64,000 bases of DNA, taken from IMG/VR virus record IMGVR_UViG_3300045988_149625. One strand, given 5' to 3'. The translations under genes were made by a program, and so were the position numbers. Below are positions 3,400-23,946 of this stretch, one piece after another. The stretch comes from a virus. Position 1 is the first letter of the stretch. Every line of letters begins with the position of its first letter. The notes below the pieces were generated by a model, which did no database searches, was not told the DNA's origin, and saw only the letters and a program-made list of their open reading frames with translations.

Positions 3400-6300
3400 T
3401 TGGAGGGAGAAAAGATGGCTAATGCAGATGTAGGTAAACTAACAGCTAGTATAGCTTTAGATGTTAGTAATCTTACAAAAGGCGTGGCAAAGGCAGACCA
3501 GCAATTAGAGCAGCTTTCTACTTCATTCCAAAAATCGCAGAAAAAAGTAAATTCATCATTAAATAGTATAGATACAAAAGTGGCAATGACTGCCAAAAAT
3601 GTTATTGCTACAATTAGGGCGCAGACTAATCAGATAAATGCGCAGATGGCAACGCAAAGAAATTTGCTGACTAAGAGCTTAAACGCACAAACAAAAACTC
3701 TTGAATCTTCTATGCAACAGCAGATAAGGGCGACACAGAAGTTATCAACTGCTGTTGGGGTAAACACTTCTCTAGTATCTGCTAGTATAATGTCAATGAA
3801 TAAGAATGTTTCAGAGGCACTTAGTCAACTGACAAGTGCTTTTGAAAGAATGTCTACACGTTCTGGACAGAGTATGACAAATGCTAGAAAAACATTATCA
3901 CAGCAAGCTGTACAGATGGCAGGGGATTTAGAGAAGTTAAAAGTAAAAGCTGAACAAACACAAGTTACTCTGAATAATAGACAGACACAAAAATTAAATT
4001 ATAAAGCTACTAAAACGGACACTGCAAAACTTGATAGTAAGCTCTCTAGAATGGATACTGTTTCATTCACACCCACCATGAACACCTCTGGGGCAGTTTC
4101 ACAAGTTAATGGCTTGGAAAGTGCTTTAGCAAAAGCAAATACGCAAGCAGTTACTTTGAGCGGAAGTTTAAGTAAGGCTTGGGAAATTTATGAAACAATA
4201 TCTTTTAGTGCTTTTAAATTAGTCTATGGTATTGACGCTATTGGACAGGCAGTAACAGCATTGGTTTCACCTGGGTGGCAACTTGCAAATTTATTGGAAA
4301 CAGAACAAATAGGTATGGCAGGTATCCTAAGCTCCATGACTTCTTTACATGGTGAGAGCTTAAAGTGGAATAGCGCAATGTCCATGTCGAAATCTATTAT
4401 GAAAGACCTTACAGTTGAGGCAGCAAAAACTGCGGCAACAAGTGAGGAATTGATTACTACTTTTAGAGCACTGCTTGGTCCAGGTTTAGGGGCAGGAATG
4501 AGCGTTGAGGAGATTAAGCAAGCCACTGTTACAGGTGTAAATGCTGTTAAATCAATGGGACTTGATGGTAGACAGCTAGTACAGGAATTAAGGGATTTAG
4601 TTCAAGGTGGTATTCAAGCTTCAAGCTCAACTTTAGCAACAGCTTTAGGTTTAACTGATAAGGATATTAAGGCAGCTAAACAAAGTAGCGAAGGTTTATT
4701 TAAATTCTTAATGAAACGCCTAGAAGGTTTTAAACAATCTTCCACAGAGTATGGCAATACTTTAAGTGGTATGCTTGCACAGGTTAAGGAAGGTTATGCA
4801 CTTGCACAGGCACAAGCTGTTGAACCTTTACGTGATGCTGCTAAGGGCATCTTAAAAGATATAAGGGATGTTCTCTATACAAAAGATATGCAAATAAATC
4901 CTGCTTTTGTGGAAGGATTTAAGGAAGTTGGAAATTACGTTTTAAAAATTTGGGAAGCTTTAAAAGAGGTAGGCAGTAGTTTTATGCCTGCTATTGAAGC
5001 AGCTTTAAATATTGCAGTTCCTTTAGTTAAGTTAATAGTAGACAATCTTAAAGAGCTTACTATAATGTTCTTGACTTGGAACATTGCTAAAAAGGTAAAC
5101 ACTTTATTTCAGATTAAAGAAGCCACTGATAGTGTAACTAGCAGTCAGATAGCACAAAATAAAGCCATTGAGGAAGCAGAAGCAAAATACAAAAAGGCAC
5201 AGAACGCTGCAATGGATTATGCTAATAGTTCTGCTTTAAAGTTTAATGCGCATGTCGAAGCAAATAATCAGAGAATAAATACAAATGCTATAGCAGGGCA
5301 GGTTAAGATGCTAGGCTCTATGTCTAATGATAAGTCCTTACAACTTTGGGGAGAGGAACTAACTAAGTTGGAAGGTAAGTATCAAAAGCTTGGAGCATCT
5401 GCAAATGAAGCCGCTAAGTATGCAAATCTTGTAGCAGAAATTACTATAAAAGGCAGTAAAGAATCTGCAAAGGAACTTGATAGAGAAATAGAAAAACGTC
5501 TAGAAGTAGCACGTGCCGCTGAAAAAGAATATCAAGGACAAATTAAGCTTGAAGGCGAAAAGAAGAAAAACTTAGAATCTACAAACAAGCTAATGGGCAA
5601 ATTTAGTGTCTTTGCTAATGTGACAGGTGGCGTTGGAGATGCTTTAATGAGCCTAGGTTTAATTTTAGGACTAACCGCAGATAAAAACGATGAATCTGCT
5701 AGACAGACCGCCGCTAATATTGAGCAATTTGGCTTTTTAATGGCAATGGCAGGAAATTTAGCATCTACACTTACAAATACCCTAGTTCCTGCGATAATGA
5801 AAGCTGTTGAATGGTTTGCAAAGCTAAAACTTGTAGCTGCAATGGGTGGTGTGGGTGCTGCCTTAGGTAAAGGTGCTTTAGTGCTTTCACCTGCTTTAAT
5901 AGCCGCAGGTGCTGCAAACTACTTTAAAAAAGACGACGACCCTACCAAGATAAAATTTGACAGTTTTGAAAGTGTTGGCGCAGGGCTTTGGCGCAATTAT
6001 ATTTATAACCCAAAAGCTGAAAAAGAAAAATTGGAGGCAGCTGCTAAAGCGGCTGCGGATAAAAAAGCTGCTGATGAAAAAGAAATGCAAGAGCAGGCAG
6101 AAAAGATTAGGCAACAATTAGCAGGTTTAGAGCTTAAATTCCCTAAGAGTCCTACTGGCGGTGGTACTAAAGGAAGCGCCGCCGCAGGTAGGGCAGCAGA
6201 TAAGGCAGCTAGAAATCAAGCTAAAAACGCCTATAAAGTTTTAGAAACTGCTTTAAAAGCGGAAAAAGAAGCAATTAAACAACAGCAGTTACAACTTGAA

Positions 6301-8304
6301 AGTGCTTATAAATTTGACTTAACTTCTACACAAGATTATATGCAGACTAAGTTTAAATACGATTCTGATATAATAGAAGCAGAAATTAAGAATTATGAAA
6401 AGCGCAGGGAGATTGCAAAATCTTTAGGACAAGATTCTGACGTAGAATCATTCACGAATAAGATAGGTGAACTTAAAGAATCTGCTATTACAAAATACAT
6501 AGAATATGTAAATGATTTAAAAGATAAGTATAAAGAATTATATGATAGATTAGATGATATAAAAGGCAAGTATGAAGATATAGTTGGTGTATCAGAAGAA
6601 GCTTTTAAAACAAATTTAGTTAAAGAGTATGCAGCAGATTTTTCAAGGGTATATGCAGAGCTTGAAACTGCGCAAAAAGGTTTAGCAAAAGCGCAAGAAG
6701 ATGGTAACACAAGTGATATAAAAGCTTGGAGTACCTTGATAAGCAAAATGCAGGTTGCTAAACAGCAATTAGAGCAGATAGTATACTTACGAAAACTAGA
6801 GCGTGATGCACAAGAGTCTATCGCTCGTGCTCAGAATGTAGGATTACAAGCACAGTCTGCAAACCTTGACTATCAGCTTTCAACAGGTGTTCATAGTGAC
6901 TTTCAGAAAGAAAGTGACTTATGGATTAGAAGCCATTCTGATATGCAGTCTGTAATAGACCAGTATAGAACTGCGATTGCTAATTACACTGCTCAACTGA
7001 GTATGGCAAATAGTGAAGAGAGAAAGAGCCAAATACTACAAAATATTGTAGACGCTAAACAAGCTATTAAAGATTTGATGGACGAAGTACATCCATTAGA
7101 ATCTTTAATTAAGGATAATTTAGTTAGTGGTTTATCAGATGCTTTTCAAAGTATTTACTGGGGAGAAAAATCAGCGAAAGAAGCCTTACAAGATTTTGCA
7201 AATACTTTCTTACAGACCTTTACTAAGAAGATGTTTGATACAGCTTTTGATGAGTTGTTTGGTAATATCTTTGACAGTATTTCTGGAAGAAATACTTTGG
7301 ATACAGATGTTGTAACAAATGTTGAATCACGTGTTACAGTTGATATGACAAAGTTTCAGCAAGATGTTACAGATGCAGGACTTACTTTACAGCAGGAGCT
7401 TAATGGTCAGTTAATACCTTCTTTCCAAGCTTTAAATTCTGTTATACAGGAAATTTTGACAAAAGCAGGTGTAACAAGCGTTGGTGTTAGCGGTGCAACA
7501 GGTATCAGCGGTGTCACAGGAAGTGTCACAGGAAGTGTCACAGGAAGTGTCACAGGACAGCCTAACACTGAAAGCACAACTATTGGAAGTGGCATAGCAA
7601 TGCCAGACTTATCTAGCTCCGTTAAGGGTTTAGAAAGATTTGACAAAGGTGTTATTTCTGCAACAGGTGCTATCGCAGAAGATACAGCGGCTACTAAGAT
7701 AAGCACTGGTGCTACTGATAATTTAAGCAGTGTTACTAAATCCACAGGAAATAGCGCAATGCCTGCTTTAATGGCAGCCGTAACCGCTGTAAGTGGTAGT
7801 TTAGGAAAATTTGGTACTGTATTACAGACTGTAATGATGATATTGCAGATTGCGCAAGCAACCCACATTCTTGGACTTGCAGATGGTGGTGCTGTTAGTG
7901 GGGCAGGTACAGGTACTAGCGATAGTATTCCTGCTAGATTGTCTAATGGGGAGTATGTAATAAAGGCAAGTTCTGCAAAGGCTTTAGGTACAAATTTCCT
8001 TGACCGCTTAAACAGTGTTGGTGATGGAAGAACAATTCGTAGTGGTAGACTTCCACGTTTTAAATACGCAGATGGTGGCGAAGTAAGAACAGAGGATAGT
8101 CAGCTAGGAAATACAATGCCTATGCAACAGGCAAATGAATTGCCCTCAACAGTAGGCGTTACTATGAATATGACATTCCAGTCACTTGACCCAGAGGCTA
8201 ATATGAAGCTGTTTAATAAGCAATATGAGAACTTTAAGAGTAAGTTAATAAATGATATTCAGAAAAATACAAGTATGCGAACAGCAATTAGAGGTGTTAC
8301 ATAA
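3400..8304 (+). CDS. tail tape measure protein
   Basis: 1634 aa, coiled-coil/Q/A/K-rich with Gly/Ala-rich hydrophobic segments. Located after the G/GT pair. RBS ggagggagaaaagATG. Confidence 0.85.
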   Translation: MEGEKMANADVGKLTASIALDVSNLTKGVAKADQQLEQLSTSFQKSQKKVNSSLNSIDTKVAMTAKNVIATIRAQTNQINAQMATQRNLLTKSLNAQTKTLESSMQQQIRATQKLSTAVGVNTSLVSASIMSMNKNVSEALSQLTSAFERMSTRSGQSMTNARKTLSQQAVQMAGDLEKLKVKAEQTQVTLNNRQTQKLNYKATKTDTAKLDSKLSRMDTVSFTPTMNTSGAVSQVNGLESALAKANTQAVTLSGSLSKAWEIYETISFSAFKLVYGIDAIGQAVTALVSPGWQLANLLETEQIGMAGILSSMTSLHGESLKWNSAMSMSKSIMKDLTVEAAKTAATSEELITTFRALLGPGLGAGMSVEEIKQATVTGVNAVKSMGLDGRQLVQELRDLVQGGIQASSSTLATALGLTDKDIKAAKQSSEGLFKFLMKRLEGFKQSSTEYGNTLSGMLAQVKEGYALAQAQAVEPLRDAAKGILKDIRDVLYTKDMQINPAFVEGFKEVGNYVLKIWEALKEVGSSFMPAIEAALNIAVPLVKLIVDNLKELTIMFLTWNIAKKVNTLFQIKEATDSVTSSQIAQNKAIEEAEAKYKKAQNAAMDYANSSALKFNAHVEANNQRINTNAIAGQVKMLGSMSNDKSLQLWGEELTKLEGKYQKLGASANEAAKYANLVAEITIKGSKESAKELDREIEKRLEVARAAEKEYQGQIKLEGEKKKNLESTNKLMGKFSVFANVTGGVGDALMSLGLILGLTADKNDESARQTAANIEQFGFLMAMAGNLASTLTNTLVPAIMKAVEWFAKLKLVAAMGGVGAALGKGALVLSPALIAAGAANYFKKDDDPTKIKFDSFESVGAGLWRNYIYNPKAEKEKLEAAAKAAADKKAADEKEMQEQAEKIRQQLAGLELKFPKSPTGGGTKGSAAAGRAADKAARNQAKNAYKVLETALKAEKEAIKQQQLQLESAYKFDLTSTQDYMQTKFKYDSDIIEAEIKNYEKRREIAKSLGQDSDVESFTNKIGELKESAITKYIEYVNDLKDKYKELYDRLDDIKGKYEDIVGVSEEAFKTNLVKEYAADFSRVYAELETAQKGLAKAQEDGNTSDIKAWSTLISKMQVAKQQLEQIVYLRKLERDAQESIARAQNVGLQAQSANLDYQLSTGVHSDFQKESDLWIRSHSDMQSVIDQYRTAIANYTAQLSMANSEERKSQILQNIVDAKQAIKDLMDEVHPLESLIKDNLVSGLSDAFQSIYWGEKSAKEALQDFANTFLQTFTKKMFDTAFDELFGNIFDSISGRNTLDTDVVTNVESRVTVDMTKFQQDVTDAGLTLQQELNGQLIPSFQALNSVIQEILTKAGVTSVGVSGATGISGVTGSVTGSVTGSVTGQPNTESTTIGSGIAMPDLSSSVKGLERFDKGVISATGAIAEDTAATKISTGATDNLSSVTKSTGNSAMPALMAAVTAVSGSLGKFGTVLQTVMMILQIAQATHILGLADGGAVSGAGTGTSDSIPARLSNGEYVIKASSAKALGTNFLDRLNSVGDGRTIRSGRLPRFKYADGGEVRTEDSQLGNTMPMQQANELPSTVGVTMNMTFQSLDPEANMKLFNKQYENFKSKLINDIQKNTSMRTAIRGVT
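7509..7556 (+). repeat. 12-bp tandem repeat x4 (aagtgtcacagg) inside the tape measure, encoding (SVTG)n
   Basis: Direct reading: cggtgtcacagg aagtgtcacagg aagtgtcacagg aagtgtcacagg. Confidence 0.8.
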
Positions 8305-9365: not shown

Positions 9366-9755
9366 ATGATTCCCAGAGAAGATGTAAAAGATTACATAGG
9401 ATTACCTTTTGTACAGGAAAAGGACGGATACGCTTGGGGATGTCTTGCTCCTTTTTATCAAATTCACCCAGAATTTGAGCATATTAAAGCATATAGGTAT
9501 CCTGTAAGTGAGGATGCTAATATGCTAAAGCATTTTAAAAGCCATTTTAAAGAAGTTGATTTAGAAGATGCCGTTTATGGGGATGTTTTGGTTATAAAAT
9601 TACCTATGAATCAATGGCATTTAGCAGTGTATTTAGGGGACGGCAAGTTAATGCACTGTACATTACATATAGACACAGAAATTACAAGACTTGAAAATTT
9701 TTCACAAGGCAGGATAAAGGGGGTATTTAGGTGTCAGGTGCAGCAGCAGCATTAG
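9366..9755 (+). CDS. NlpC/P60-family tail tip protein (lambda gpK-like)
   Basis: Cys/His/His pattern (GCLA...HLAVYLGDGKLMHC) is typical of NlpC/P60. Position fits gpK. Confidence 0.5.
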   Translation: MIPREDVKDYIGLPFVQEKDGYAWGCLAPFYQIHPEFEHIKAYRYPVSEDANMLKHFKSHFKEVDLEDAVYGDVLVIKLPMNQWHLAVYLGDGKLMHCTLHIDTEITRLENFSQGRIKGVFRCQVQQQH

Positions 9756-12742
9756 GTTGGGTAGGTATTGGTATTGCCCTTGTCAGTATGTTTGTAAGCC
9801 TTAGACAACAAAAGAAATTGTCTAAAAAAAAGGCTTCCTATACATACGGTGAGGGCGCACTGACTACCAACGTGAGCACCACAGACCCAGTACCTATTAT
9901 ATATGGTACTGTAAAAACTGCGGGAAACATGATTTATTCTAGATTAAGTAATGATAAAAAAGTGCTCTATAAATTAGTATCTGTTGCGGATGGTAAGATT
10001 AAGGGCATAAGGGATTTGCAATTTGATGATTTAGATGCAAATAGCAGTAAGTATGAGGGCGTTAGCTATAACTATTACTATGGTGATGGCGTACAAGAAA
10101 TAGATAGCCGTGTAATCGGAGATACACAAGAAGATAAAGCAATGCTAGTTGGCGGTTTAAAGTATTTGGCATACATAGCTTTACAGGCAAAGGCGAATGA
10201 AAATTTAAGCAGTAGTTTTAATGTTACTTGTTTAGTAGACGGTTCTATTGTAAAGATATATGAGAACGCAAACGATTTGACGCAGTATCGAGAGGAATGG
10301 ACGGATAATCCTGCATGGTGTGTTTTAGATTTTATGACACGTTATAATGGATGCGGAATGAGCCTTGATGAAATTGATGTTCAAAGTTTTATAGACGGAG
10401 CTAAATTCTTTAAAGAAAAGAATTATACATTAAATTTAGCTTTAGATGAACAAAGAAGCCGTTTAGAGTGGATACAGTATATGTTAAACTGTTGCCGTTC
10501 ACTGCTTATATATAGAGCAGGTAAATATAGTTTATTCGTGGAAAAGGCAGATGAGGTAGTTCAATCATATACTCCGAATGACATACACGATTTGAGTATA
10601 TGGTTCAGTCCTTTATCAGAAGTCCCAGATATTTATAGAATTACTTATATTGACCCTAAAAATGAGTGGGTAAAAGTAAATGCAGAAGCTTCTTTAAGCC
10701 CAGATAGCTATTTAAGAAAACAGCCAATGGTTGAAACTTTGGAGCTAATGGGTGTAACAACTTTTGACCAAGCAAGTAGATTAGCATGGTTCTACTTAAA
10801 TCAAGCACTGACTTGTCAAACCTACATTTCTTTTAAAACAGATAGACGCGCTTTAAATAGAACTGTTGGCGATGTAATAGAGGTTACAGACTATGTAACA
10901 GAGTTTCAAAAGAAAAAATTTAGAATAATAAAAATTGAAGATGAGCAAAATGAAAGTATAAAGCTTACATGTAGAGAGTACAACGAATCTATTTATAGTG
11001 AGCAACGTGGAGCGAGTGACCCTGTAATAAATGTTACAGAACTCACTGACCCGCAACAAACGCCGCCAGAAATAGTATATGTAGGAAATGAGCAAGACTA
11101 TTATATACTACCAGATAAAACGGTAGTAAGTAATATAATGTTAGATGTAATTTATACAGATTGGACTTATAATAAGAGTTTCAATGTTTCGTACCGTAAG
11201 AAGGATTCAGATAAGTGGCTTTTTGGTGGAACATTTGATGATGGTACTTACAGGGCTGTTATAGAGAATATGGAAATATACGAAACCTACATTTTCAGAT
11301 TTCAGAATATGAGTAAGTACGGCAAATTTTCAGCATATACTTATTCCCCAGAGATTTACATTACAGGTAAAAATGTAGCTCCTAATATGCCTTCTAATTT
11401 TCACGGTGAAGAGGTGGTAGGAGGTTTTAAACTTTATTGGGACGCTGGTGAAAAGGATGTAGATTATTATTTGTTATATTTAGGTTCTGTATCAGAAGAA
11501 GCTAAAATAGCACAAGTATATGGAACATCTTATTACTATCCTGCAGATGTTGGTGAATATACTTTTTATTTAGTAGCTGTTGATACAGCAGGTAATCGTT
11601 CCACTCCTGCAAGACTACTTTTAGAAATTTTATGCCCCTCAGACGTAAACGGCTTTGACTGTGTACAGAATGAACGCAACATAGAGTTTCATTGGAATTT
11701 AGTGGAAGGAGCTTCTTACTATGTACTTAAAGAGGGTGAGAACTGGGAATATGGTAATACCTTAGCAACAAGTTCTGGACATTTCTTTAGTTACCCATAT
11801 GCACAAGCAACAAGCACTACTTTTTGGATGAAAGCGTATACTGAATATGGCGTGCCTAGTGTAAACCCTGCATACTGTCAATTAAGTGTAGCATCTATAC
11901 CTAATAGGAACATGATTTTAGAATATGATGCAGTAGAAGATGGTTGGAGTGGTAAGAAATATAACATGCACGTAAATGCAGGTGGTATACAATTAGATGC
12001 AGGCAAGGTTTATGGGGACTATATATATCCTATGGAGTTAGACCAAGAGTATTGCGCAAGAAACTGGACAGAGAAAACTATCAAGCCAGTAAACGCGGAG
12101 TTAGAGCTTATGTGGAAGGATGCTCATTTTACATGGGCGAGTGCGAACGCTAAACGAAGAACTTGGTTTCCATTAGGCATAGATGATATATACAATTCAT
12201 GGACGGAAATTGCAATATATAATGAAGCAAGTAAAGAGGATATAGTCGAAAGAATGTCATTGAATGAAACACTTGTTTCAGATAGTGGTAAAAAGCCTGT
12301 AGGAAATGTTGGTACACCCACATATGGTGCAGGAAGATTTGAAAAAGGTCTTGTGTTAGATGGAAAGTGCCGTCCAAAATGGAAAAATTTGCCCATTGAT
12401 GATGCTTTCTCATTCAGTTTTAATCTTTACGTGCCTTTTGACAGTGTAAATAATTACTCGATTCTTACTTTAAGGAATGATTTAGGTGATTATTTATGGC
12501 TTCATTATAGAGAAGATGATGATATGTTTGTATGTACCTTTTCAGATGGTAGAGAGTATGAGTTAAAAGATTTTTCTGGAAAGGGCGATTATCTACATTT
12601 TATAATTTCACAAGGCGCAGGATATTTTACATTTGTTATATATGACGTAGGTTATGATTCCTATGTTATAAATAGAAAGAAAATTTCTACAATGAAGCGA
12701 TACACGCAGGTAGCTTTGTACGGTGATTTCAATAGGGAATAG
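9731..12742 (+). CDS. tail tip / host-specificity protein (gpI-like N-terminus fused to gpJ-like body)
   Basis: 1003 aa. Hydrophobic N-terminus followed by FN3-like repeats. Large central fibre gene after the M-L-K homologues. Confidence 0.55.
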   Translation: MSGAAAALGWVGIGIALVSMFVSLRQQKKLSKKKASYTYGEGALTTNVSTTDPVPIIYGTVKTAGNMIYSRLSNDKKVLYKLVSVADGKIKGIRDLQFDDLDANSSKYEGVSYNYYYGDGVQEIDSRVIGDTQEDKAMLVGGLKYLAYIALQAKANENLSSSFNVTCLVDGSIVKIYENANDLTQYREEWTDNPAWCVLDFMTRYNGCGMSLDEIDVQSFIDGAKFFKEKNYTLNLALDEQRSRLEWIQYMLNCCRSLLIYRAGKYSLFVEKADEVVQSYTPNDIHDLSIWFSPLSEVPDIYRITYIDPKNEWVKVNAEASLSPDSYLRKQPMVETLELMGVTTFDQASRLAWFYLNQALTCQTYISFKTDRRALNRTVGDVIEVTDYVTEFQKKKFRIIKIEDEQNESIKLTCREYNESIYSEQRGASDPVINVTELTDPQQTPPEIVYVGNEQDYYILPDKTVVSNIMLDVIYTDWTYNKSFNVSYRKKDSDKWLFGGTFDDGTYRAVIENMEIYETYIFRFQNMSKYGKFSAYTYSPEIYITGKNVAPNMPSNFHGEEVVGGFKLYWDAGEKDVDYYLLYLGSVSEEAKIAQVYGTSYYYPADVGEYTFYLVAVDTAGNRSTPARLLLEILCPSDVNGFDCVQNERNIEFHWNLVEGASYYVLKEGENWEYGNTLATSSGHFFSYPYAQATSTTFWMKAYTEYGVPSVNPAYCQLSVASIPNRNMILEYDAVEDGWSGKKYNMHVNAGGIQLDAGKVYGDYIYPMELDQEYCARNWTEKTIKPVNAELELMWKDAHFTWASANAKRRTWFPLGIDDIYNSWTEIAIYNEASKEDIVERMSLNETLVSDSGKKPVGNVGTPTYGAGRFEKGLVLDGKCRPKWKNLPIDDAFSFSFNLYVPFDSVNNYSILTLRNDLGDYLWLHYREDDDMFVCTFSDGREYELKDFSGKGDYLHFIISQGAGYFTFVIYDVGYDSYVINRKKISTMKRYTQVALYGDFNRE

Positions 12743-14553: not shown

Positions 14554-15357
14554 ATGGGTGTAACAGAGCATGTTTTAAACATACAAAGTAGTAATAATAA
14601 AAAAGTAGTTCCTTTATATGATACACCTACTTGTAGCTATACAGGAAGGTCTTTACCAATTAAATTAGCTAATGGTTCAACTGTGTATGCACCTCTAGGT
14701 GTTACAGATGATTTGTATGGAACACAGCTTTGGGTAGAAATTGATGGAGCGTCTTATAGAGTGGTTGAGCAAAGTGTGCAAGGTATTCAAGGTGTAAACT
14801 TTGATAAGACTGTAAAAATAGAATTTAGTGGTAGCGGTGAGCGCACAGCTAAATATGATACTTTTTATTTTGTAGCACCAAGAAGAACCAAGTTTCATTA
14901 TAAAAGTATGGTTAATTACGGACAAACTGGTTGGGGATACAGCTCTGATAGGTGGCAACGTAGTGATATATGGATAAACTTAGATGGAAATCTACTTGTT
15001 AAGAAAACTTTTAGACGCAGTGCAGGCATTAATTGGAAAACTCTATATGATGGGGACATTGAATTAGATGCAGGAACACATCGAATGGAACTTTGGCTTT
15101 TGGGGCAAGGCTCTAGTAAAGATAGTCATTTAACTGTTTGTTATGCTTGGAACAATGATTTGTTAATGTCTGGACAACAATTTGTCCAATATTCAAGTCC
15201 AGGTACGTATGACTTCACAGTTCCTAAGGGTGTGGAAAGCATTACCATCGTGACTGTTGGTGGTGGCGGTGGTGGAGCAGGGTATGGATACACCCCCCAA
15301 GAAGATAGTGGTAGCGGCCCCAGTCAAGGTGAAGGTAGTGGAGGCGAAGGAGCATGA
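14554..15357 (+). CDS. glycine-rich tail fibre protein (N-terminal part)
   Basis: ...FTVPKGVESITIVTVGGGGGGAGYGY... is a typical phage-fibre Gly-rich motif. Ends GEGSGGEGA*. Confidence 0.45.
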   Translation: MGVTEHVLNIQSSNNKKVVPLYDTPTCSYTGRSLPIKLANGSTVYAPLGVTDDLYGTQLWVEIDGASYRVVEQSVQGIQGVNFDKTVKIEFSGSGERTAKYDTFYFVAPRRTKFHYKSMVNYGQTGWGYSSDRWQRSDIWINLDGNLLVKKTFRRSAGINWKTLYDGDIELDAGTHRMELWLLGQGSSKDSHLTVCYAWNNDLLMSGQQFVQYSSPGTYDFTVPKGVESITIVTVGGGGGGAGYGYTPQEDSGSGPSQGEGSGGEGA

Positions 15358-15836
15358 GTAGTTATCCTTATACACAAGTTATTGTAGATGCTAAAGGCAC
15401 AGATGGTGGAAATTCTAAGGCTTCTTTAAATGGAGCAGATATAATTCTTGCAACTGGGGGCAGTGGTGCAAAATATAAAAGAACTCGTACCCATGTTAAT
15501 TGGCACAGCTCTACTGAGTCCGAAGAAAAGCAGGTAGGTAGGGGTGGTACACCAAATGGCATAGATGGCACTTATTCAGTATCTGGCACAAAGGGGTATG
15601 ATATTCGTCCAGAGGTTACTAGAGGTTCTTATGGTAGCGGGGGAGGTTGTTCAAATACTAATACAGTTGTATATCCTGTATCTGGGGGCAGTGGTGGTAT
15701 TAATATTGTCACCATTCCTGTTAAGGAAGGGGATAGATTACAAATCACTGTTGGAAGCGCGGGTGCAGGTGGTGGAATTGGTTTAGCAGGAAATGCAGGA
15801 GCGGTAGCATTATGGTATTACAAATTGGGAAACTAA
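15354..15836 (+). CDS. glycine-rich tail fibre protein (second part; possibly same gene as 14554-15357 via frameshift)
   Basis: GGSGAKY...SYGSGGGCSN...VSGGSGGINIVTIPV...VGSAGAGGGIGLAGNAG. ATGA overlap with the preceding Gly-rich ORF. Confidence 0.4.
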   Translation: MSSYPYTQVIVDAKGTDGGNSKASLNGADIILATGGSGAKYKRTRTHVNWHSSTESEEKQVGRGGTPNGIDGTYSVSGTKGYDIRPEVTRGSYGSGGGCSNTNTVVYPVSGGSGGINIVTIPVKEGDRLQITVGSAGAGGGIGLAGNAGAVALWYYKLGN

Positions 15837-17035
15837 TAGATAATATATTAGTGGCAAAATTTATAACAAATAATACATTAAAAGAGTTTAAAGATTTAGT
15901 TGGGGAAGGAGATTATGTGGATATTACAGGGGTCGACATTCAAGAGGGTGACAAATTTGTTAATGGGGATGCTATTCATTGTGAGGGCGATTCATTATCC
16001 AAGGAAGGTGTAAAAGCACTTTATCTGATGCTAGGCAGTGCGTGTAATATGTCTTGCAGACATTGTACACAAACTCCTATTAAAGGTAATGTTGCTTTTC
16101 CTACTACTGAGTTAAGTAAGGATGTACTAGATTTTATAGTAAATTGGGATAAAAATGGCGGTGGAAGGTTATATTTTTGGGGCGGTGAACCTTTACTTTA
16201 TTGGAATACAATAAAGAAACTTATAGAAGAGTTTGAAAAAATGGGAATGAGAAATACTTCTTATCGCATTTTCACCAATGGTCTATTACTTTCAAATTCC
16301 ATTGTAGACTTTTGTAACAAACATAATATATGGGTAATTATGAGTTATGATGCACCTAACCCCTTAGCTGCAAGAAACGCCATGCCGTCAGAGAGAAATA
16401 TAGAAGCTTTCTTGTTGGCAGAAAAAAGAACAGTAAATGGTGTATACAATGCCTTAAACTGTGATATGGTAGCTGCTTTTAAATACTTGGAGTCAAAATT
16501 TCCTAATACTGAGGTAACTCTAGGGTTTATAAATGTATTATGGGATATACCAAAAGACTTATACGCTTTTGGAAAAGGCGAAGTAAGAAAGGCGGTAAAA
16601 GATTTATTTGAATATTATAAAGAAACAAGGGATTCAAATGTACACAGGTGGTTTGAAACTAAACTTAGAAGAGGGAATTACTTTTCCATTGAAGAATTTA
16701 TGCTTTCCCCATTTCCTCCCTGTGCACCTGGGCGTATCTCTTTATCTATAGATTTTGCAGGTAATATAATAAGATGCCACAATGACGATAAAGTGGTTGC
16801 AAATATTAAAGATGATTATTCAGATATATTAAAAGCACATGAAATGGAGTGGCTAAAGTTATTGCCAAGAAATTGTGCAGAATGTGAATGTCTACCTTTG
16901 TGCAGGTCAATTTGTCCAATAGCCTATAAGAAAGAAAACAAAGAAGAATTTGTACAATGTGATTATATAAGGGAGTTTTTTAGCGCGGTGCAGGAATGTG
17001 CCGATGATTTTTGGAGAATGGAAGGTGAGATGTAA
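15812..17035 (+). CDS. radical SAM enzyme with C-terminal SPASM domain (peptide/protein-modifying maturase-like)
   Basis: CNMSCRHC (CxxxCxxC) at about residue 78 and GGEPLL (SAM-binding). C-terminal Gx4C (GNIIRC) plus CAECECLPLCRSIC (Cx2Cx5Cx3C) plus a final Cys form a SPASM signature. An ~75-aa N-terminal extension precedes the cluster, as in RRE-containing sactisynthases. Confidence 0.7.
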   Translation: MVLQIGKLIDNILVAKFITNNTLKEFKDLVGEGDYVDITGVDIQEGDKFVNGDAIHCEGDSLSKEGVKALYLMLGSACNMSCRHCTQTPIKGNVAFPTTELSKDVLDFIVNWDKNGGGRLYFWGGEPLLYWNTIKKLIEEFEKMGMRNTSYRIFTNGLLLSNSIVDFCNKHNIWVIMSYDAPNPLAARNAMPSERNIEAFLLAEKRTVNGVYNALNCDMVAAFKYLESKFPNTEVTLGFINVLWDIPKDLYAFGKGEVRKAVKDLFEYYKETRDSNVHRWFETKLRRGNYFSIEEFMLSPFPPCAPGRISLSIDFAGNIIRCHNDDKVVANIKDDYSDILKAHEMEWLKLLPRNCAECECLPLCRSICPIAYKKENKEEFVQCDYIREFFSAVQECADDFWRMEGEM

Positions 17036-18970
17036 ATGGCAAGCTTTCATAACTGGACAGGTGATGAATTAATTGATACACAAGTCCCACAGTTTTTAAA
17101 TGAAGATAATGCAGCAACACAGGAGAAATTAGACACTAAATTTAATAAATCCTTAGATATAGCAGAAGCCTCAGACTTAAACAATTTTAAGGATGAGGGG
17201 TTCTACTGCTGTAATTCTAATTCTCGTGCTGAAACTATTTTAAATTGTCCTACTAATTATGCTTTCGGTTTAATGGTATGGGGTAAAGGCGAAATAGTCT
17301 ATCAAGAAGTGCGCGAATTTAACAGAGGCTCTAACCAAGATTACAATAACTGTTGGAGAAGAAGTTATTCTGGGGGCGGACAAGGTGTGTGGTCTAACTG
17401 GCAGAAAGTGGCTTATGCAGCTACTACTTTAGCAGAATACGGAATAACAGACGGTATGGGCAAGAACGCCACAAACAGTGTGGGTGTGACAGATATTATT
17501 AAAAGAAGTATTAATACGTCGTACTTGCGTTTAACAGGTGGCAATACATTTGATAAAAGTGCAACTCTTCAACTCTGCGGAGGTACTTATGCAACAAACG
17601 CAGGACAGTTTTTATTAAAAGCAGCAGATTCAGCACACTCAGCAACTCTTTCAGGTAATCCTTCTGGGCTACTTAAATGGAATGATAAAAATATAGTACG
17701 TTCAGTAAATAATTCTGTTGCAGATGAACATGGTAATGTAACTTTACTGTTCCCCGACTCAGATGTAACGCAGGAAGGCGCGGGGTACTGGAAGCCTAAT
17801 GAATCAGTACAAGAAGGGGATATACGTTATGTGTATGGTAGAGGAAACACAGGTGTTGTTTTAAAATGTGTGAAAGCAGGAATAACAGGAGCAGAATTAC
17901 CAGATTTAGAGGCTGCTTCAAATGCTGTGCAATTAGTAACAGAAACTACTACTGAGGTAAAACCTTTTGATATATTGGATTATGTATCACAAGTACCAGA
18001 ATATTACACACGCCCTAGTTTGTATACAGTTTCAAAAAAATCTATAACTATACCTAAGGGGTTACGTGTAAGAATTGGTGATAAAGGTTATGAGAGTGTT
18101 AGTACAACTACATTAAGCACTACATCTTTGGGAAGTTTGGCAGCAAAAGATGTTTATATATATGCTTGTGCTCCTATTACTTTATCTACTGAGCCAATAT
18201 TTGTACTTTCATTAAATAGTACAGTACCTAGTGGGTATACCGCAGAAAACAGTCGCAAGATTGGCGGTTTTCATTGCTTATGTGCAGATGTTGGTACAAT
18301 AAGTGGACATACTTTAAGTGGTTATGTAGCAGGTGACATACTTCCTGCTTCTGCATGGGATTTAATTCATCGTCCACGATGTTCCCCCGAAGCAATGGTG
18401 TATTGTGATACGGTGGACTTTTGGGTCGATATATATTTGGATAGTTGGGATGGTAACAAATTAGTATCTGTATACAAAGGTGTTACAGCAGACGGAACTT
18501 CCACTAAAAAGTTTCATGGTGAGCTTTTTGTAGATGAGCTTGCAAAATTGAATAAAAGACTACCTCCAAGAAGAGTATTTCAAGCAATAATGAAAGGCTC
18601 AAATGAACGCACCAATGTTAAAGGTTCGAAAGACGTAAATACTACTGGTGGTAATGTAGATACAGCAGGTCGAAGAATGATAAGTAATTATGGTTGTGAA
18701 GATGGCTGCGGTTTCTTGTGGCAATGGTCTGATGAACTAGGTTTTGCAGGTGGTAGTGCATGGACAGATTCAGTATATAATTCAAGTGTCGATTCTGAAA
18801 GAATTGGACAAACTTATGGAACTTTGTATAGAGCTGCGCTGGGCGGTTGCTGGGTTCACGGCGGTTCTTGTGGTTCGCGGTCGGTGTTTTGCAGCCATTC
18901 CTCGGCTCTTGTCAGTGCTTATTTTGGCGGTCGCGGCGCTTGCGAGCCGAAGGTCGCAAAGTTCTATTAG
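17036..18970 (+). CDS. DGR target protein: tail fibre/receptor-binding protein with C-terminal C-type-lectin-fold variable region
   Basis: 644 aa. Its C-terminus (…GGCWVHGGSCGSRSVFCSHSSALVSAYFGGRGACEPKVAKFY) is encoded by the variable repeat (VR), which matches the downstream template repeat (TR) except at TR adenines. ATGG overlap with the rSAM gene. Confidence 0.75.
   Translation: MASFHNWTGDELIDTQVPQFLNEDNAATQEKLDTKFNKSLDIAEASDLNNFKDEGFYCCNSNSRAETILNCPTNYAFGLMVWGKGEIVYQEVREFNRGSNQDYNNCWRRSYSGGGQGVWSNWQKVAYAATTLAEYGITDGMGKNATNSVGVTDIIKRSINTSYLRLTGGNTFDKSATLQLCGGTYATNAGQFLLKAADSAHSATLSGNPSGLLKWNDKNIVRSVNNSVADEHGNVTLLFPDSDVTQEGAGYWKPNESVQEGDIRYVYGRGNTGVVLKCVKAGITGAELPDLEAASNAVQLVTETTTEVKPFDILDYVSQVPEYYTRPSLYTVSKKSITIPKGLRVRIGDKGYESVSTTTLSTTSLGSLAAKDVYIYACAPITLSTEPIFVLSLNSTVPSGYTAENSRKIGGFHCLCADVGTISGHTLSGYVAGDILPASAWDLIHRPRCSPEAMVYCDTVDFWVDIYLDSWDGNKLVSVYKGVTADGTSTKKFHGELFVDELAKLNKRLPPRRVFQAIMKGSNERTNVKGSKDVNTTGGNVDTAGRRMISNYGCEDGCGFLWQWSDELGFAGGSAWTDSVYNSSVDSERIGQTYGTLYRAALGGCWVHGGSCGSRSVFCSHSSALVSAYFGGRGACEPKVAKFY
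18831..18945 (+). repeat. DGR variable repeat (VR), ~115 bp, with GC-rich IMH at its 3' end
   Basis: Aligns base-for-base with 19047-19161. About 24 mismatches, every one at a TR adenine. Ends in a shared ggcggtcgcggcgcttgcga; downstream gcgagccgaaggtcgca forms an imperfect GC hairpin. Confidence 0.8.
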
Positions 18971-19046
18971 AACTAGGTATACGGCTACATGAAGTTGTTA
19001 AGGAACACGAAGTAGTCTTGAATATACTGGGTTGTGGTTGTTAAAA

Positions 19047-19161
19047 GAGCTAAACTAGGCGGTAACTGGGATAACAGCAGTTCTTGTAGTTCGCAGTCAG
19101 TGAATTGCAACAATTCCTCAGCTAATGTCAATGCTAATTATGGCGGTCGCGGCGCTTGCGA
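19047..19161 (+). repeat. DGR template repeat (TR), A-rich (AAC/AAT codons)
   Basis: gagctaaactaggcggtaactgggataacagcagttcttgtagttcgcagtcagtgaattgcaacaattcctcagctaatgtcaatgctaattatggcggtcgcggcgcttgcga. Identical to the VR except where the TR has A. Confidence 0.8.
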
Positions 19162-19416
19162 TACGGAGAGAGCTATTCCTTCGGCTGAACCACAATCCAT
19201 TCTAGCAGAGAAATACTGTATAGAAAAACACACAACAGGAGTATAGAAGGGCTAGTAGTGTAAACGAACGTCATTCTATAAAACTCCGTATCTTTAAATA
19301 AAGGAGAAATAAACTTGAAAAGAATTGGGAATTTATGAACTAAAATTATAGATAAAGAAAATATTAAGGAGAGTATTTTAAGCGCTGCAAAACATAAGAA
19401 AAAGCGCCCTGCGGTA

Positions 19417-20709
19417 ATGAAGGTACTCAATAATATAGACGAATATGTAGAAAAGATTCACAAATTGTTAGTAAACAAGGAGTATAAAGTTTCGGAATAT
19501 TATATAAAAGCAATTTATGAGCCTAAGCTAAGGCTTATTTACATATTACCCTTTTATCCAGATAATATAATATTTCACTGCATAATGAGGGTATTAGAGC
19601 CTATATGGGACAGTAGGTTTATTTATGATACTTATTCATGCAGGAAGGGTAAGGGGCAACATAAAGGAATGTTAAAGAGCACTATATACGTAAAGAATTA
19701 CAAATACTGCTTAAAATGTGATATAAGTCAGTTTTACCCAAGCCTTAATCATAGAATACTAAAGGAAAGTTTCCGTTGGAAAATCAAAGATAAGGACGTA
19801 TTGGAGCTACTTGACTTAATAGTAGATAGTGTTTCTGTGCGGGAAAGGAATCTAGATTTTTTAAAGTGCTGCAAGGCAAGTGATAAACATATGATGGAAC
19901 AGAAGCTTCAAACATTAAAAGAAGAGTTCCCAGAAGGAGATTTCGGTGTGCCTATTGGTAATTATCCTTCACAATGGTTCGGAAACCTTTATATGAACCC
20001 TTTAGATAACCTTATTAAGTACTGTTTCCATGCAAAAGCATATGTAAGATACTGCGACGATTTTGTTGTTTACAGTAATGATAAAAAGTGGTTACATAGT
20101 GTAGCTGCGGAGATAGAGAACTTTTGTAAGGAAAGATTAAAATTAAAGATGAGTAAGTGTCGGGTATTTCCTACGAAGTGTGGAGTAGATTTCTTAGGGT
20201 ATAAAGCATTTCCCAGTGGTAAGATTCTTTTGCGTAAAAGGACAGCAAAAAGAGTCCATAAACAAATAAAAGCATTATGGAAAGAGCTATCTTATGGGAA
20301 CTATGAACAAATGCTTTCTAAAGTGGGAAGCAGAATGGGGTATTTAAGGTACGCTAAAAGTTATAATTTTAGATTACAAATAAAGATTAAAGAGTTGGAA
20401 AGGGAACTAAAAAGGAGGATTAGTATGGTAGGTTATCCAAAAAATTTAAGCACAAAAGAAGATTATGAGTACGTGAGAACACATTTCCCTAAAAGTGATT
20501 GGCAGAAAGACTTTGAAAGTCTTTTACCTCGCAAGGAATGGTTCTTCATTGAAGAAACTAAGGTTAATAAAAAAGAAGATGCTACTCATAAAACAGAACC
20601 CTCTGACGATGAAGGGGTATTCTATCGTTATGAATTGAGGGGGGTAAGTAAGGCAGCAGAAATTGGATATACGGTAGAAGAAGTAGAGAAGATTCTAAGG
20701 AGTGAATAA
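19417..20709 (+). CDS. DGR reverse transcriptase
   Basis: YCDDFVV (YxDD) and IGNYPSQWFGNLYMNP (DGR-type SQ motif). N-terminal YEPKLRLI is typical of DGR RTs. The conserved sequence continues in frame upstream to 19339 and the RBS-linked TTG at 19315, but an in-frame TGA lies at 19336-19338. Confidence 0.85.
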   Translation: MKVLNNIDEYVEKIHKLLVNKEYKVSEYYIKAIYEPKLRLIYILPFYPDNIIFHCIMRVLEPIWDSRFIYDTYSCRKGKGQHKGMLKSTIYVKNYKYCLKCDISQFYPSLNHRILKESFRWKIKDKDVLELLDLIVDSVSVRERNLDFLKCCKASDKHMMEQKLQTLKEEFPEGDFGVPIGNYPSQWFGNLYMNPLDNLIKYCFHAKAYVRYCDDFVVYSNDKKWLHSVAAEIENFCKERLKLKMSKCRVFPTKCGVDFLGYKAFPSGKILLRKRTAKRVHKQIKALWKELSYGNYEQMLSKVGSRMGYLRYAKSYNFRLQIKIKELERELKRRISMVGYPKNLSTKEDYEYVRTHFPKSDWQKDFESLLPRKEWFFIEETKVNKKEDATHKTEPSDDEGVFYRYELRGVSKAAEIGYTVEEVEKILRSE

Positions 20710-23271: not shown

Positions 23272-23946
23272 ATGGAAGGTACTGGTGTTGTTCCTGTAAT
23301 GAATATGAACCGTGGATATGACAACGATTGGAGTAATGGTTGTGGTATGTGGTTCATGTGGATTATTGTTATCTTTGCCTTAATGGGCGGATGGGGAAAT
23401 GGTTTCGGTAATAACAGGGGTTTAAACGAAGCCTTAACTAGAAGCGACCTGCAAGCAGGTTTTGATAACCAATCTGTTCAAAGAGGTATAGCAGGTATTC
23501 AAAATGGTCTGTGTGACGGCTTTTATGCACAGAACACAACTATGTTAAACGGTTTCAATGGAGTACAGCGTGATTTAATGGCGAATGGTTATCAGTTAGG
23601 TAATCAAATCGCAGAAAACCGCTTTGCTGCACAAGATTGTTGCTGCACCACAAATCGCAACATAGATTCTGTAAGAGCTGAAAACTATAAGAATACTTGT
23701 GAAATTGTGAACGCAATTAATGCGGATGGTGAAAAGACACGTGCAGTAATGGTAGCTAATACCATTCAAGAACTTCGTGATAAACTTGCTGACAGAGATA
23801 GAGATTTGCAGACTGCTAATTTCCAGCTTAGTCAACAAGCGCAAAGTGCAGCCTTAATTGGTGCGCTTAGACCCTTCCCGCAGCCTGCATTTTTAACCTG
23901 CTCTCCTTATCAGAGCGCAGCAAATAATGTTTGTGGTTGTGTTTAA
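23272..23946 (+). CDS. hypothetical membrane protein
   Basis: N-terminal TM segment (MWFMWIIVIFALMGGWG). C-terminus is Cys-rich. RBS ggaggtacttactATG. Confidence 0.3.
   Translation: MEGTGVVPVMNMNRGYDNDWSNGCGMWFMWIIVIFALMGGWGNGFGNNRGLNEALTRSDLQAGFDNQSVQRGIAGIQNGLCDGFYAQNTTMLNGFNGVQRDLMANGYQLGNQIAENRFAAQDCCCTTNRNIDSVRAENYKNTCEIVNAINADGEKTRAVMVANTIQELRDKLADRDRDLQTANFQLSQQAQSAALIGALRPFPQPAFLTCSPYQSAANNVCGCV

Follow-up and report, generated by a model that had tools for sequence, protein, structure and literature searches.

The closest described counterparts of the system reported here are the PapB/freyrasin system and the SCIFF-type ranthipeptide maturases, including CteB (PDB 5WGG), in which radical S-adenosylmethionine (SAM) enzymes with a SPASM fold and seven auxiliary-cluster cysteines act on a small exported peptide. 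Here we describe an enzyme with the same fold and the same number of auxiliary-cluster cysteines, encoded at positions 15812-17035 of the IMG/VR virus record IMGVR_UViG_3300045988_149625 (64,000 nucleotides (nt); this whole stretch is called the window below). As the best explanation of the data, we propose that this enzyme is the dedicated maturase of a C-terminal tail (...SQGEGSGGEGA) carried by the fibre-associated protein encoded at 14554-15357, a reading that we regard, taken as a whole, as reasonably probable. Such a pair would be known in kind, as a SPASM maturase with a linked C-terminal core, and new in its class of substrate, the virion fibre proteins.

The likeness to the PapB system extends to the motifs. 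The PapA substrate carries C-x3-D, as against [C/S]-x2-E here, and in both cases the donor lies N-terminal to the acidic acceptor and the motif is repeated (PMC12373016). The donor is Cys in the PapB system but Ser in the clade of the window, and in place of a small exported peptide the putative substrate is the C-terminal end of a structural protein from a phage (lengths of 62 to about 670 amino acids (aa)), in a viral context. Other described enzymes resemble the locus in single respects. QhpD, a SPASM radical SAM enzyme that crosslinks Cys to Asp (at C-beta) and to Glu (at C-gamma) in QhpC, a subunit kept in a larger assembly (PMC8326336), offers the closest functional analogy for modification of a structural protein rather than a natural product; it differs in that it is a bacterial periplasmic enzyme with another substrate family and Cys donors only, and the window enzyme falls far short of its family cutoff (TIGR03906; 49.9 vs 453 bits). 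The anaerobic sulfatase-maturating enzyme (anSME; PDB 4K36-4K39) is the top structural match, likewise has no recognition element for ribosomally synthesised peptides with post-translational modifications (RiPPs), and acts on Ser or Cys of a full-length protein (PMC8326336), but its auxiliary clusters are fully ligated by eight cysteines. Finally, TqqB-type enzymes are a precedent for a SPASM radical SAM protein that bonds the oxygen of a hydroxyl group to an sp3 carbon (PMC11851443), the chemistry that a Ser-type tail would need; their acceptor, however, is the alpha-carbon of Gln in a short quorum-sensing-linked streptococcal peptide, and they are likened to the window enzyme by chemistry alone.

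The features of the enzyme gene are as follows.

15812..17035, plus strand: predicted radical SAM/SPASM maturase, 407 aa (motifs, profile matches, AlphaFold2 model, PDB fold matches)
15812..15976, plus strand: predicted N-terminal beta-rich module, residues 1-55, clade-specific (AlphaFold2 model, homologue alignment)
16043..16066, plus strand: CxxxCxxC motif, C78-N-M-S-C82-R-H-C85 (CNMSCRHC), ligands of the radical SAM [4Fe-4S] cluster (invariant in 78 homologues)
16181..16189, plus strand: GGE SAM-binding motif, G124-G125-E126, within FWGGEPLL (invariant in 78 homologues)
16721..16960, plus strand: SPASM cysteines C304, C322, C355, C358, C364, C368 and C383 (TIGR04085, homologue alignment)

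An earlier note, made from the letters of the window alone, had assigned this open reading frame (ORF) to the radical SAM/SPASM class on the strength of its CxxxCxxC, GGE and SPASM motifs, and the assignment was borne out. The catalytic motifs are intact, and all seven cysteines of the SPASM signature (C304-x12-G317-x4-C322 ... C355-x2-C358-x5-C364-x3-C368 ... C383) persisted on careful alignment, with each position invariant or at least 90% conserved in the 78 homologues; they are the predicted ligands of two auxiliary Fe-S clusters. The protein passed the cutoffs of Pfam Radical_SAM (PF04055; 37.2 bits, cutoff 29.5) and of the NCBIfam SPASM model TIGR04085 (31.5 bits, cutoff 27), and matched phrog_1802 (E=1.3e-32). 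An AlphaFold2 model built from the 78-sequence alignment had a mean predicted local distance difference test score (pLDDT) of 92.8, and its closest PDB folds were anSME, CteB, ChlB, TigE and SuiB, with template modelling (TM) scores of about 0.5-0.66; YydG was also among the PDB matches. By sequence and predicted fold, the product of the ORF is thus a true member of the radical SAM/SPASM class and belongs with the maturases of peptides and proteins. Its top NCBIfam family match was PapB (NF047865), over the full length (residues 67-371 against positions 2-319 of 330 in the profile), and CteB was among its best PDB matches. All the same, it scored far below the family cutoffs for PapB (67.3 vs 340 bits), the SCIFF maturase (TIGR03974; 64.4 vs 425 bits) and RumMC (34.9 vs 720 bits).

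The architecture of the auxiliary clusters points in the same direction. At its first SPASM position the family has a single cysteine ('PPC'), like CteB ('TGCGSG') and TigE ('KTCSAT'), whereas anSME has two ligand cysteines there ('SSCGMNGTCTC') and eight in total. Full Cys ligation of the auxiliary clusters has been described for anSME, SuiB and PqqE, while in sacti- and ranthisynthases the ligation of an auxiliary cluster is incomplete and leaves an open site able to bind substrate (PMC8326336).

The sactisynthases AlbA, SkfB, ThnB and RumMC and the SCIFF maturase carry an N-terminal RiPP recognition element (RRE), a PqqD-like winged helix. The earlier note had seen the counterpart of such an element in the residues ahead of the CxxxCxxC motif, which did not hold up. 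Pfam gave no PqqD/RRE match in the enzyme; residues 1-55 were modelled as a beta-beta-alpha-beta-beta-beta module (strands 3-9, 12-19, 34-37, 48-50 and 53-55, helix 23-30, pLDDT 83-92); and this module is limited to homologues at least 60% identical and is missing from most of the family, the clades at about 50% identity and lower beginning only about 10-20 residues ahead of CxxxCxxC. An N-terminal RRE was ruled out on these grounds. In addition, the alignments of CteB and TigE to the enzyme start past their own RRE, at residues of about 90-103. In the loci with the module, the gene order is N-fragment and C-fragment of a Gly-rich domain followed by the enzyme, and the modelled domain may serve for docking onto the fibre complex.

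The substrate side of the proposed pair comprises two Gly-rich ORFs 5' of the enzyme gene.

14554..15357, plus strand: putative substrate, a fibre-associated protein of 267 aa (tail motif, Gly_rich_2-like match, homologue P0098)
15328..15354, plus strand: tail core G-E-G-S-G-G-E-G-A with the [S/C]-G-G-[E/D] unit, conserved among relatives; the stop codon (15355-15357) follows directly
15354..15836, plus strand: second Gly-rich ORF, 160 aa, probable C-fragment of a split Gly_rich_2-like domain, ending ...INIVTIPVKEGDRLQITVGSAGAGGGIGLAGNAGAVALWYYKLGN (in silico joining, counterparts in loci L003 and L007)

The protein of 14554-15357 consists of a beta-rich body (residues 1-205), a segment with the first strands of a Gly_rich_2-like domain and a glycine run (residues of about 206-242, ...YDFTVPKGVESITIVTVGGGGGG), and the tail (residues 243-267, YGYTPQEDSGSGPSQGEGSGGEGA, then stop). 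On both strands of the whole window, it is the single ORF with the tail motif. A further 160 loci (L numbers below) were fetched by similarity to the enzyme from IMG/VR and GTDB genomes, and all their ORFs were scanned for the tail. Family loci were defined by an enzyme at least 34% identical to that of the window (n=42), and a tail ORF was counted if it ended between -80 and 600 nt upstream of the enzyme gene. By this measure, 40 of the 42 family loci had a tail ORF upstream of the enzyme, in 18 distinct tail variants; the other two were L015, where the contig ends, and L036, whose ...SSGCGGEGG missed the threshold. The background was one in 2906 ORFs elsewhere in the family loci, this one being a second tail protein beside a block of four radical SAM genes in L010, and 5 in 8663 ORFs of 129 control loci with more distant enzymes. 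Examples of the tails are given below.

Window, 14554-15357: ...SQGEGSGGEGA, stop
L003: ...HGEGSGGEGSASGGEA, stop
L007: ...SAGEGSGGEGN, stop
L008: ...GSGGEGSGGEGADSGGDGG..., stop
L010: ...SGCGAEGCGGESSS, stop, and ...YGCGGEGAQ, stop

Among close relatives the tail core is invariant, and the linker before it varies (TPQEDSGSGPSQ, TPKEDTDDSGPSQ or TPQEDSGGGSS). An aromatic/acidic patch (YGY..ED, YDEYE, PYDD, PWDD or FYYE) usually precedes the core by 8-20 residues and may have a role in recognition.

The near-obligate co-occurrence of tail and enzyme extends across unrelated bodies. In an all-against-all BLAST of the neighbouring proteins from 11 representative loci, the radical SAM enzyme was the sole protein common to all, and the tail-bearing proteins of these loci belonged to at least three unrelated body families (Gly_rich_2 starts, Ig-like-repeat fibres and others). 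In L008, L016, L093, L030, L036 and L010, the tail ends Ig-like-repeat or other fibre proteins that have no Gly-rich partner; what the loci have in common is therefore the tail rather than the Gly-rich domain. Presence and absence also go together. L241 contains a syntenic tail module in the same gene order, in which the body homologue P0098 (42% identity) ends at residue ~206 with neither Gly-rich segment nor tail, and in which the enzyme and the second Gly-rich ORF are missing too, so that the locus can be read as a natural knock-out with joint loss of tail and enzyme. As expected of a RiPP system, a genetically linked precursor was found whose core co-varies with the maturase, the Ser, Cys and NCNC tails tracking the enzyme clade. 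Taken together, these observations suggest that the tail is probably the substrate of the enzyme. That the fibre protein is post-translationally modified, the general idea of the earlier note, has gained strong comparative support and is very probably correct. The note had looked for the partner among the fibre and receptor-binding proteins; the receptor-binding protein fell away, and the partner now indicated is the Gly-rich protein of 14554-15357, by way of a C-terminal ...GEGSGGEGA tail that had gone unseen.

It is very improbable that the tail is no substrate at all, being a low-complexity or Shine-Dalgarno sequence next to an enzyme that acts on a nucleotide or sugar and lies among fibre genes incidentally. 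The window tail DNA does contain GGAGG 9 nt ahead of the next ATG, and viperin-type models gave partial matches to the N-terminal core of the enzyme (50 bits). However, across 20 loci the tail glycines were encoded by GGT (75), GGC (55), GGA (47) and GGG (8) and the motif serine by both AGY and TCN codons, half of the loci had no Shine-Dalgarno-like sequence within the tail, and in L008 at least 45 nt separate the tail motif from the start codon that follows. The synonymous variation of the Gly and Ser codons and the tails lacking a Shine-Dalgarno sequence therefore show that conservation acts on the peptide, and an artefact of this type was ruled out by the codon analysis, these loci and the spacing in L008. 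The specificity of the tail for family loci, the SPASM domain with its full-length matches to peptide maturases, and the joint loss of tail and enzyme in L241 speak against an incidental neighbourhood as well.

The tail core switches between Ser and Cys according to the enzyme clade.

Enzyme at least 47% identical to that of the window: G-E-G-S-G-G-E-G
Enzyme 34-40% identical (L010, L030, L036): C-G-G-E, C-G-A-E, C-G-S-E
Enzyme 23-32% identical: many fibre-like proteins with the ending ...HxH...NCNCxCxCDC...D/E-rich, or small ORFs with Cys repeats at the end, and 1-5 radical SAM genes alongside

The minimal conserved unit is [S/C]-x-x-[E/D], in which the donor stands on the N-terminal side of the acid. 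In L010, L030 and L036 a Cys precedes the acidic residue, the order of donor and acceptor in PapB-type systems, and the window clade has S-G-G-E and no Cys. For the Cys-type clades, a ranthipeptide-like thioether would be the natural prediction by analogy, and for the Ser-type tail of the window an ether analogue would be the most economical extension. As the specific product of the enzyme, a Ser/Cys-to-Glu (thio)ether ring is suggested only tentatively by these analogies.

An unlikely product, though the main alternative to the ring, is formylglycine, generated by anSME-like oxidation of the tail Ser (Cys in the sister clades), which would place a reactive aldehyde at the fibre tip without a crosslink. 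Interchange of Ser and Cys at one position is a hallmark of anSME substrates, both residues being accepted by anSME (PMC8326336); anSME was also the top Foldseek match to the enzyme (TM 0.59-0.66), and an RRE is absent from both. On the other hand, the profile of the enzyme family matched anSME less well (E-value 1e-19) than TigE (6e-35) or CteB (2.7e-31), the anSME equivalog model TIGR03942 gave 42.3 bits against a cutoff of 349.45, and the family has seven auxiliary-cluster cysteines where anSME has eight and full ligation (PMC8326336). The tail and the neighbouring proteins lack a sulfatase motif, and the invariant Glu at +3 would be left unexplained. The sulfatase motif of anSME substrates is C/S-x-P/A-x-R.

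There also looks to be a much larger Cys-type sister system. In the IMG/VR contigs L037-L048, L050, L053, L055, L063-L069, L079, L084 and L086, fibre-like proteins or small ORFs end in Cys-X-Cys-X repeats with acidic residues (e.g., ...HWHTVNSTNCNCKCACNCTDNDEE and ...NCKCQCNCDCDCGDDNCSE). The fibre-like proteins of this set often have HxH 15-25 residues from the end, they adjoin one to five distant SPASM radical SAM genes, and some of the loci also encode a conserved protein of ~235-257 aa. In L010 (5186-14295), large Ig-like-repeat proteins, each with a Cys-type tail, lie on the two sides of a block of four tandem radical SAM paralogues and a Sel1-repeat protein.

The split of the Gly-rich domain is a further peculiarity of the locus. 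Gly_rich_2 (PF21722) is a domain of phage adhesins, which both ORFs 5' of the window enzyme and the ORFs flanking the enzyme in L003 and L007 resemble; here, in contrast, it appears to be cut into two or three separately translated pieces, with the tail on each non-terminal piece. In the window, residues 215-255 of the 14554-15357 protein gave a weak match to positions 2-38 of the profile (E=0.034, 14.6 bits, below the cutoff of 24.3), and joining of the tail-less N-fragment to the 15354-15836 protein in silico extended the match to positions 2-146 (E=0.005, 17.3 bits, below the same cutoff). The split is best supported in L003 and L007, whose homologous pieces scored 23.8, 35.7 and 46.4 bits over complementary profile ranges (cutoff 24.3): an ORF of 62-69 aa upstream of the enzyme covers positions 3-40, and the ORF after the enzyme starts at positions 41-43. 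By this comparison, the second Gly-rich ORF of the window probably continues the domain begun in the first. In L246 (3657-5010; Logan SRR26064558_913), the domain is spread over three consecutive ORFs (288, 55 and 107 aa) directly followed by the gene of an enzyme of 84% identity, and both non-terminal fragments end in ...SSGEGSGGEG[AS]. In the split Gly-rich loci the gene is thus interrupted at each place where a tail occurs, twice in L246, which suggests that the modification requires a free C-terminus.

The interruption precisely at the tails, into two or three ORFs, would also suit some other radical chemistry on this tail without a Ser/Cys-Glu ring, an alternative about as improbable as formylglycine. 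Candidates are epimerisation (YydG/EpeE-like), modification of a Gly or Ser alpha-carbon (for the Cys-type clades, a sactionine like that of GggB), or a covalent crosslink between chains or fragments, by which the split Gly-rich fragments or the fibre trimer would be held together. The tail is rich in glycine alpha-carbons, GggB links Cys sulfur to the alpha-carbon of Ser or Gly (PMC11851443), YydG was found among the PDB matches, and in the distant clades the Cys tails come right after HxH motifs, which are typical of the tips of trimeric fibres. However, the invariant [S/C]-x-x-E spacing favours a donor-acceptor pair within the tail, and the tail carriers of L008, L016, L093 and L030 have no split Gly-rich partner.

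We therefore return to the dedicated maturase and its ring-forming chemistry, for which the following course is proposed. Late in infection of an anaerobic gut host, the fibre protein would be made with a flexible Gly-rich tail and a free C-terminus, to which the enzyme would bind without a classical RRE. Cleavage of SAM would give a 5'-deoxyadenosyl radical, which would abstract a hydrogen from the tail, most likely from the Glu side-chain carbon beside the carboxylate. A small ring might then be closed from Ser (Cys in the sister clades) to the Glu at +3, an ether in the window clade and a thioether in the Cys-type clades by analogy with PapB and QhpD, with the donor residue or a carboxylate bound where auxiliary cluster I has an open iron site. 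The stapled tail would form part, or the cap, of a Gly-rich (Gly_rich_2-like) receptor-binding module assembled by both Gly-rich ORFs. Release of a small peptide from the carrier seems unlikely, as judged from the gene content: no peptidase or exporter was conserved across the representative loci, and the proteins that bear the tail are fibre-like, with lengths from 62 to about 670 aa.

Several points weigh against this proposal. The window tail contains no Cys, so the thioether precedent of QhpD, which forms Cys-Asp and Cys-Glu thioethers within a protein subunit (PMC8326336), is not literally applicable, and a Ser-to-Glu ether has no direct precedent; ether formation from O to C by a radical SAM enzyme is known from TqqB (PMC11851443). 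Without a PqqD/RRE match, the enzyme would have to recognise its substrate by other means. In the window, the 160-aa ORF separates the tail ORF from the enzyme gene, so that the two are not directly adjacent. The AlphaFold2 model of the 14554-15357 protein was poor (pLDDT 47, from a shallow alignment) and uninformative, with an all-beta body at residues 86-204 and no fold predicted for the last 60 residues by themselves. The association of tail and enzyme has a Fisher p of about 1e-77, a value in which independence is overstated since the loci are phylogenetically related. In principle, the co-occurrence could reflect inheritance of one cassette instead of an enzyme-substrate pair, against which it can be argued that the tail is found on unrelated bodies. 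A reverse search of IMG/VR with the GEGSGGEG DNA pattern was noisy, its 70 matches being mostly out-of-frame AAEKAA-type repeats of high-GC phages or internal repeats; those that were in-frame fibre C-termini had a radical SAM gene in every case where the locus extended far enough.

The enzyme lies in a tail-fibre operon, with two Gly-rich ORFs upstream and the target of a diversity-generating retroelement (DGR) downstream, as the earlier note had described. The module is of siphovirus type and comprises a tape measure gene (3400-8304), a J-like protein (9731-12742), small fibre-module ORFs, the two Gly-rich ORFs and the enzyme, followed by an Mtd-like DGR target, the DGR template repeat (TR) and reverse transcriptase, and more fibre genes.

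17036..18970: Mtd-like DGR target (PF21916) with a C-terminal variable repeat (VR) (Pfam)
18830-18952: DGR VR (repeat comparison)
19046-19168: DGR TR, 79% identical to the VR (repeat comparison)
19417-20709: DGR reverse transcriptase (DGR component)

The differences between VR and TR are located at TR adenines, and the DGR is thus genuine. Of the ATGA/ATGG overlaps to both neighbours of the enzyme gene that had been reported, an ATGA overlap does exist, but between the two Gly-rich ORFs; the upstream junction of the enzyme gene is a 25-nt overlap with ORF 15354-15836, with AGGAG about 10 nt 5' of the enzyme ATG, and the downstream gene starts at the first base after its stop codon (17036).

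It was this DGR-diversified receptor-binding protein, of C-type-lectin fold, that the earlier note had linked to the enzyme through the formylglycine-generating enzyme, which shares the fold, and through anSME. As the substrate of the enzyme it is now scarcely tenable and is largely refuted by synteny. In the window, the target gene is the immediate neighbour of the enzyme gene, and a DGR is also found near the 63%-identical enzyme of L245. However, the target in L245 is a different protein (DUF6273), and both the DGR and an Mtd-like target are missing next to the enzyme in L001 (95% identity), L246 (84%), L003, L007, L008 and L010. The target N-terminus (window 17036-17900, MASFHNWTGDE.IDTQVPQFLNEDN...) is common to the non-DGR fibre proteins of L001 (9225-10592) and L246 (6240-7361); these relatives share only this N-terminal shaft and differ in their C-terminal domains, which on comparison indicates modular exchange of receptor-binding tips downstream of the enzyme. 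Since it is found in the window and L245 and missing from the close relatives L001 and L246, the DGR appears as a swappable fibre module. The expected conservation of enzyme, fibre and DGR in related phages was therefore not found, and what is kept instead is the tail-bearing fibre ORF with the enzyme.

Homologues of the enzyme do occur in structural contexts, as the proposal of a virion function had implied. Divergent homologues sit in tail or baseplate modules, and the phages and prophages concerned are unrelated (myovirus-like, P2-like and others) and for the most part lack a DGR; close homologues were found on IMG/VR contigs of about 100 kb (L001/L002) and on many metagenomic contigs. In GTDB, the clade at ~50% identity occurs in Segatella copri, Succiniclasticum ruminis DSM 9236, Phascolarctobacterium, Bacteroides sp. 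CAG:545 and a Tenericutes metagenome-assembled genome; these hosts are all anaerobes, consistent with an oxygen-sensitive enzyme. The locus of S. ruminis DSM 9236 belongs to a prophage (L094, NZ_FONL01000010.1, 5865-18887), and its tail-bearing protein has 441 aa. In a search of 1.84 billion representatives, 850 clusters (50% identity) matched the enzyme profile at E<=1e-30. GenBank phage DNA contained no match to the window region, and tblastn retrieved from it only radical SAM proteins at most 25% identical; for distant homologues in phages, the GenBank annotation goes no further than 'radical SAM domain-containing protein' or 'anaerobic sulfatase-maturating enzyme'.

Distant and longer homologues (~25% identity, 446-454 aa) are encoded directly after the tail-fibre genes of two phages in culture whose hosts are aerobic, Ralstonia phage RSP15 (L244, NC_030948, 2251-6161) and Achromobacter phage JWF (L243, NC_029075, 2664-6185). 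The side tail fibre of RSP15, two genes upstream of the enzyme, ends in ...SMSNTNCQCGN, which is suggestive only; in JWF the enzyme gene lies inside the fibre module and no obvious tail was seen. In P0080, P0084, P0099 and P0100 (663-800 aa), the radical SAM/SPASM part is confined to the C-terminal half, with two matched stretches each, and these proteins appear to be fusions, possibly with tandem radical SAM domains.

No description of radical SAM maturation of phage fibre proteins was found in the literature, of which the searchable part is incomplete, so that a report may exist; the closest remark found was that host-recognition clusters of pelagimyophages differ by radical SAM gene cassettes (PMC7029224). 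In a scan of ten tail-bearing proteins against NCBIfam, none was recognised by any model. A wider and bolder interpretation, which we consider doubtful, is that phages infecting anaerobic gut bacteria subject the proteins of their virion to a RiPP-like pathway, with a large RRE-less SPASM family crosslinking the free C-terminal tails of fibres and adhesins. The chemistry of the Ser-type clade would then be new (a Ser-O to Glu-carbon ether, or covalent re-joining of the split Gly-rich fragments), its product would be a stapled receptor-binding tip, and the split genes would exist to create free C-termini. The split-gene architecture is unusual, and the Cys-less core hints at unexplored chemistry.

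If the maturase proposal is true, radical SAM peptide-maturation chemistry serves virion proteins, beyond secreted natural products, and adds an enzymatic, non-genetic layer to the building of phage receptor-binding structures. It could explain the stability of fibres in the protease-rich, reducing gut, and it would bear on heterologous production and engineering, as absence of the maturase, or production in an aerobic host, might leave the fibres defective. In addition, the 62-69-aa ORFs of L003 and L007 would provide very small natural substrates for a possibly new radical SAM chemistry on a Cys-free Ser/Gly/Glu peptide, and the tail motif together with a SPASM gene would give a simple predictive rule for annotating hundreds of unannotated phage genes (about 850 clusters).

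Some other ORFs of the window deserve mention. Away from the enzyme, at 23272-23946, lies a gene for a Gly/Asn-rich protein of 224 aa (phrog_16490) that has three cysteines in a row (CCC; ...AAQDCCCTTNRN...) and further Cys at its C-terminus (...NNVCGCV); the protein is kept in L001. The 719-aa ORF at 47714-49873 has RNA-ligase matches at residues 1-280 and 561-702, split by a LAGLIDADG homing-endonuclease match at residues 308-497, which suggests an intein or an inserted endonuclease domain. The 636-aa protein of 45807-47717 matches a phage queuine tRNA-ribosyltransferase family (phrog_887, E=1e-66) and may be a sign of 7-deazaguanine DNA modification.

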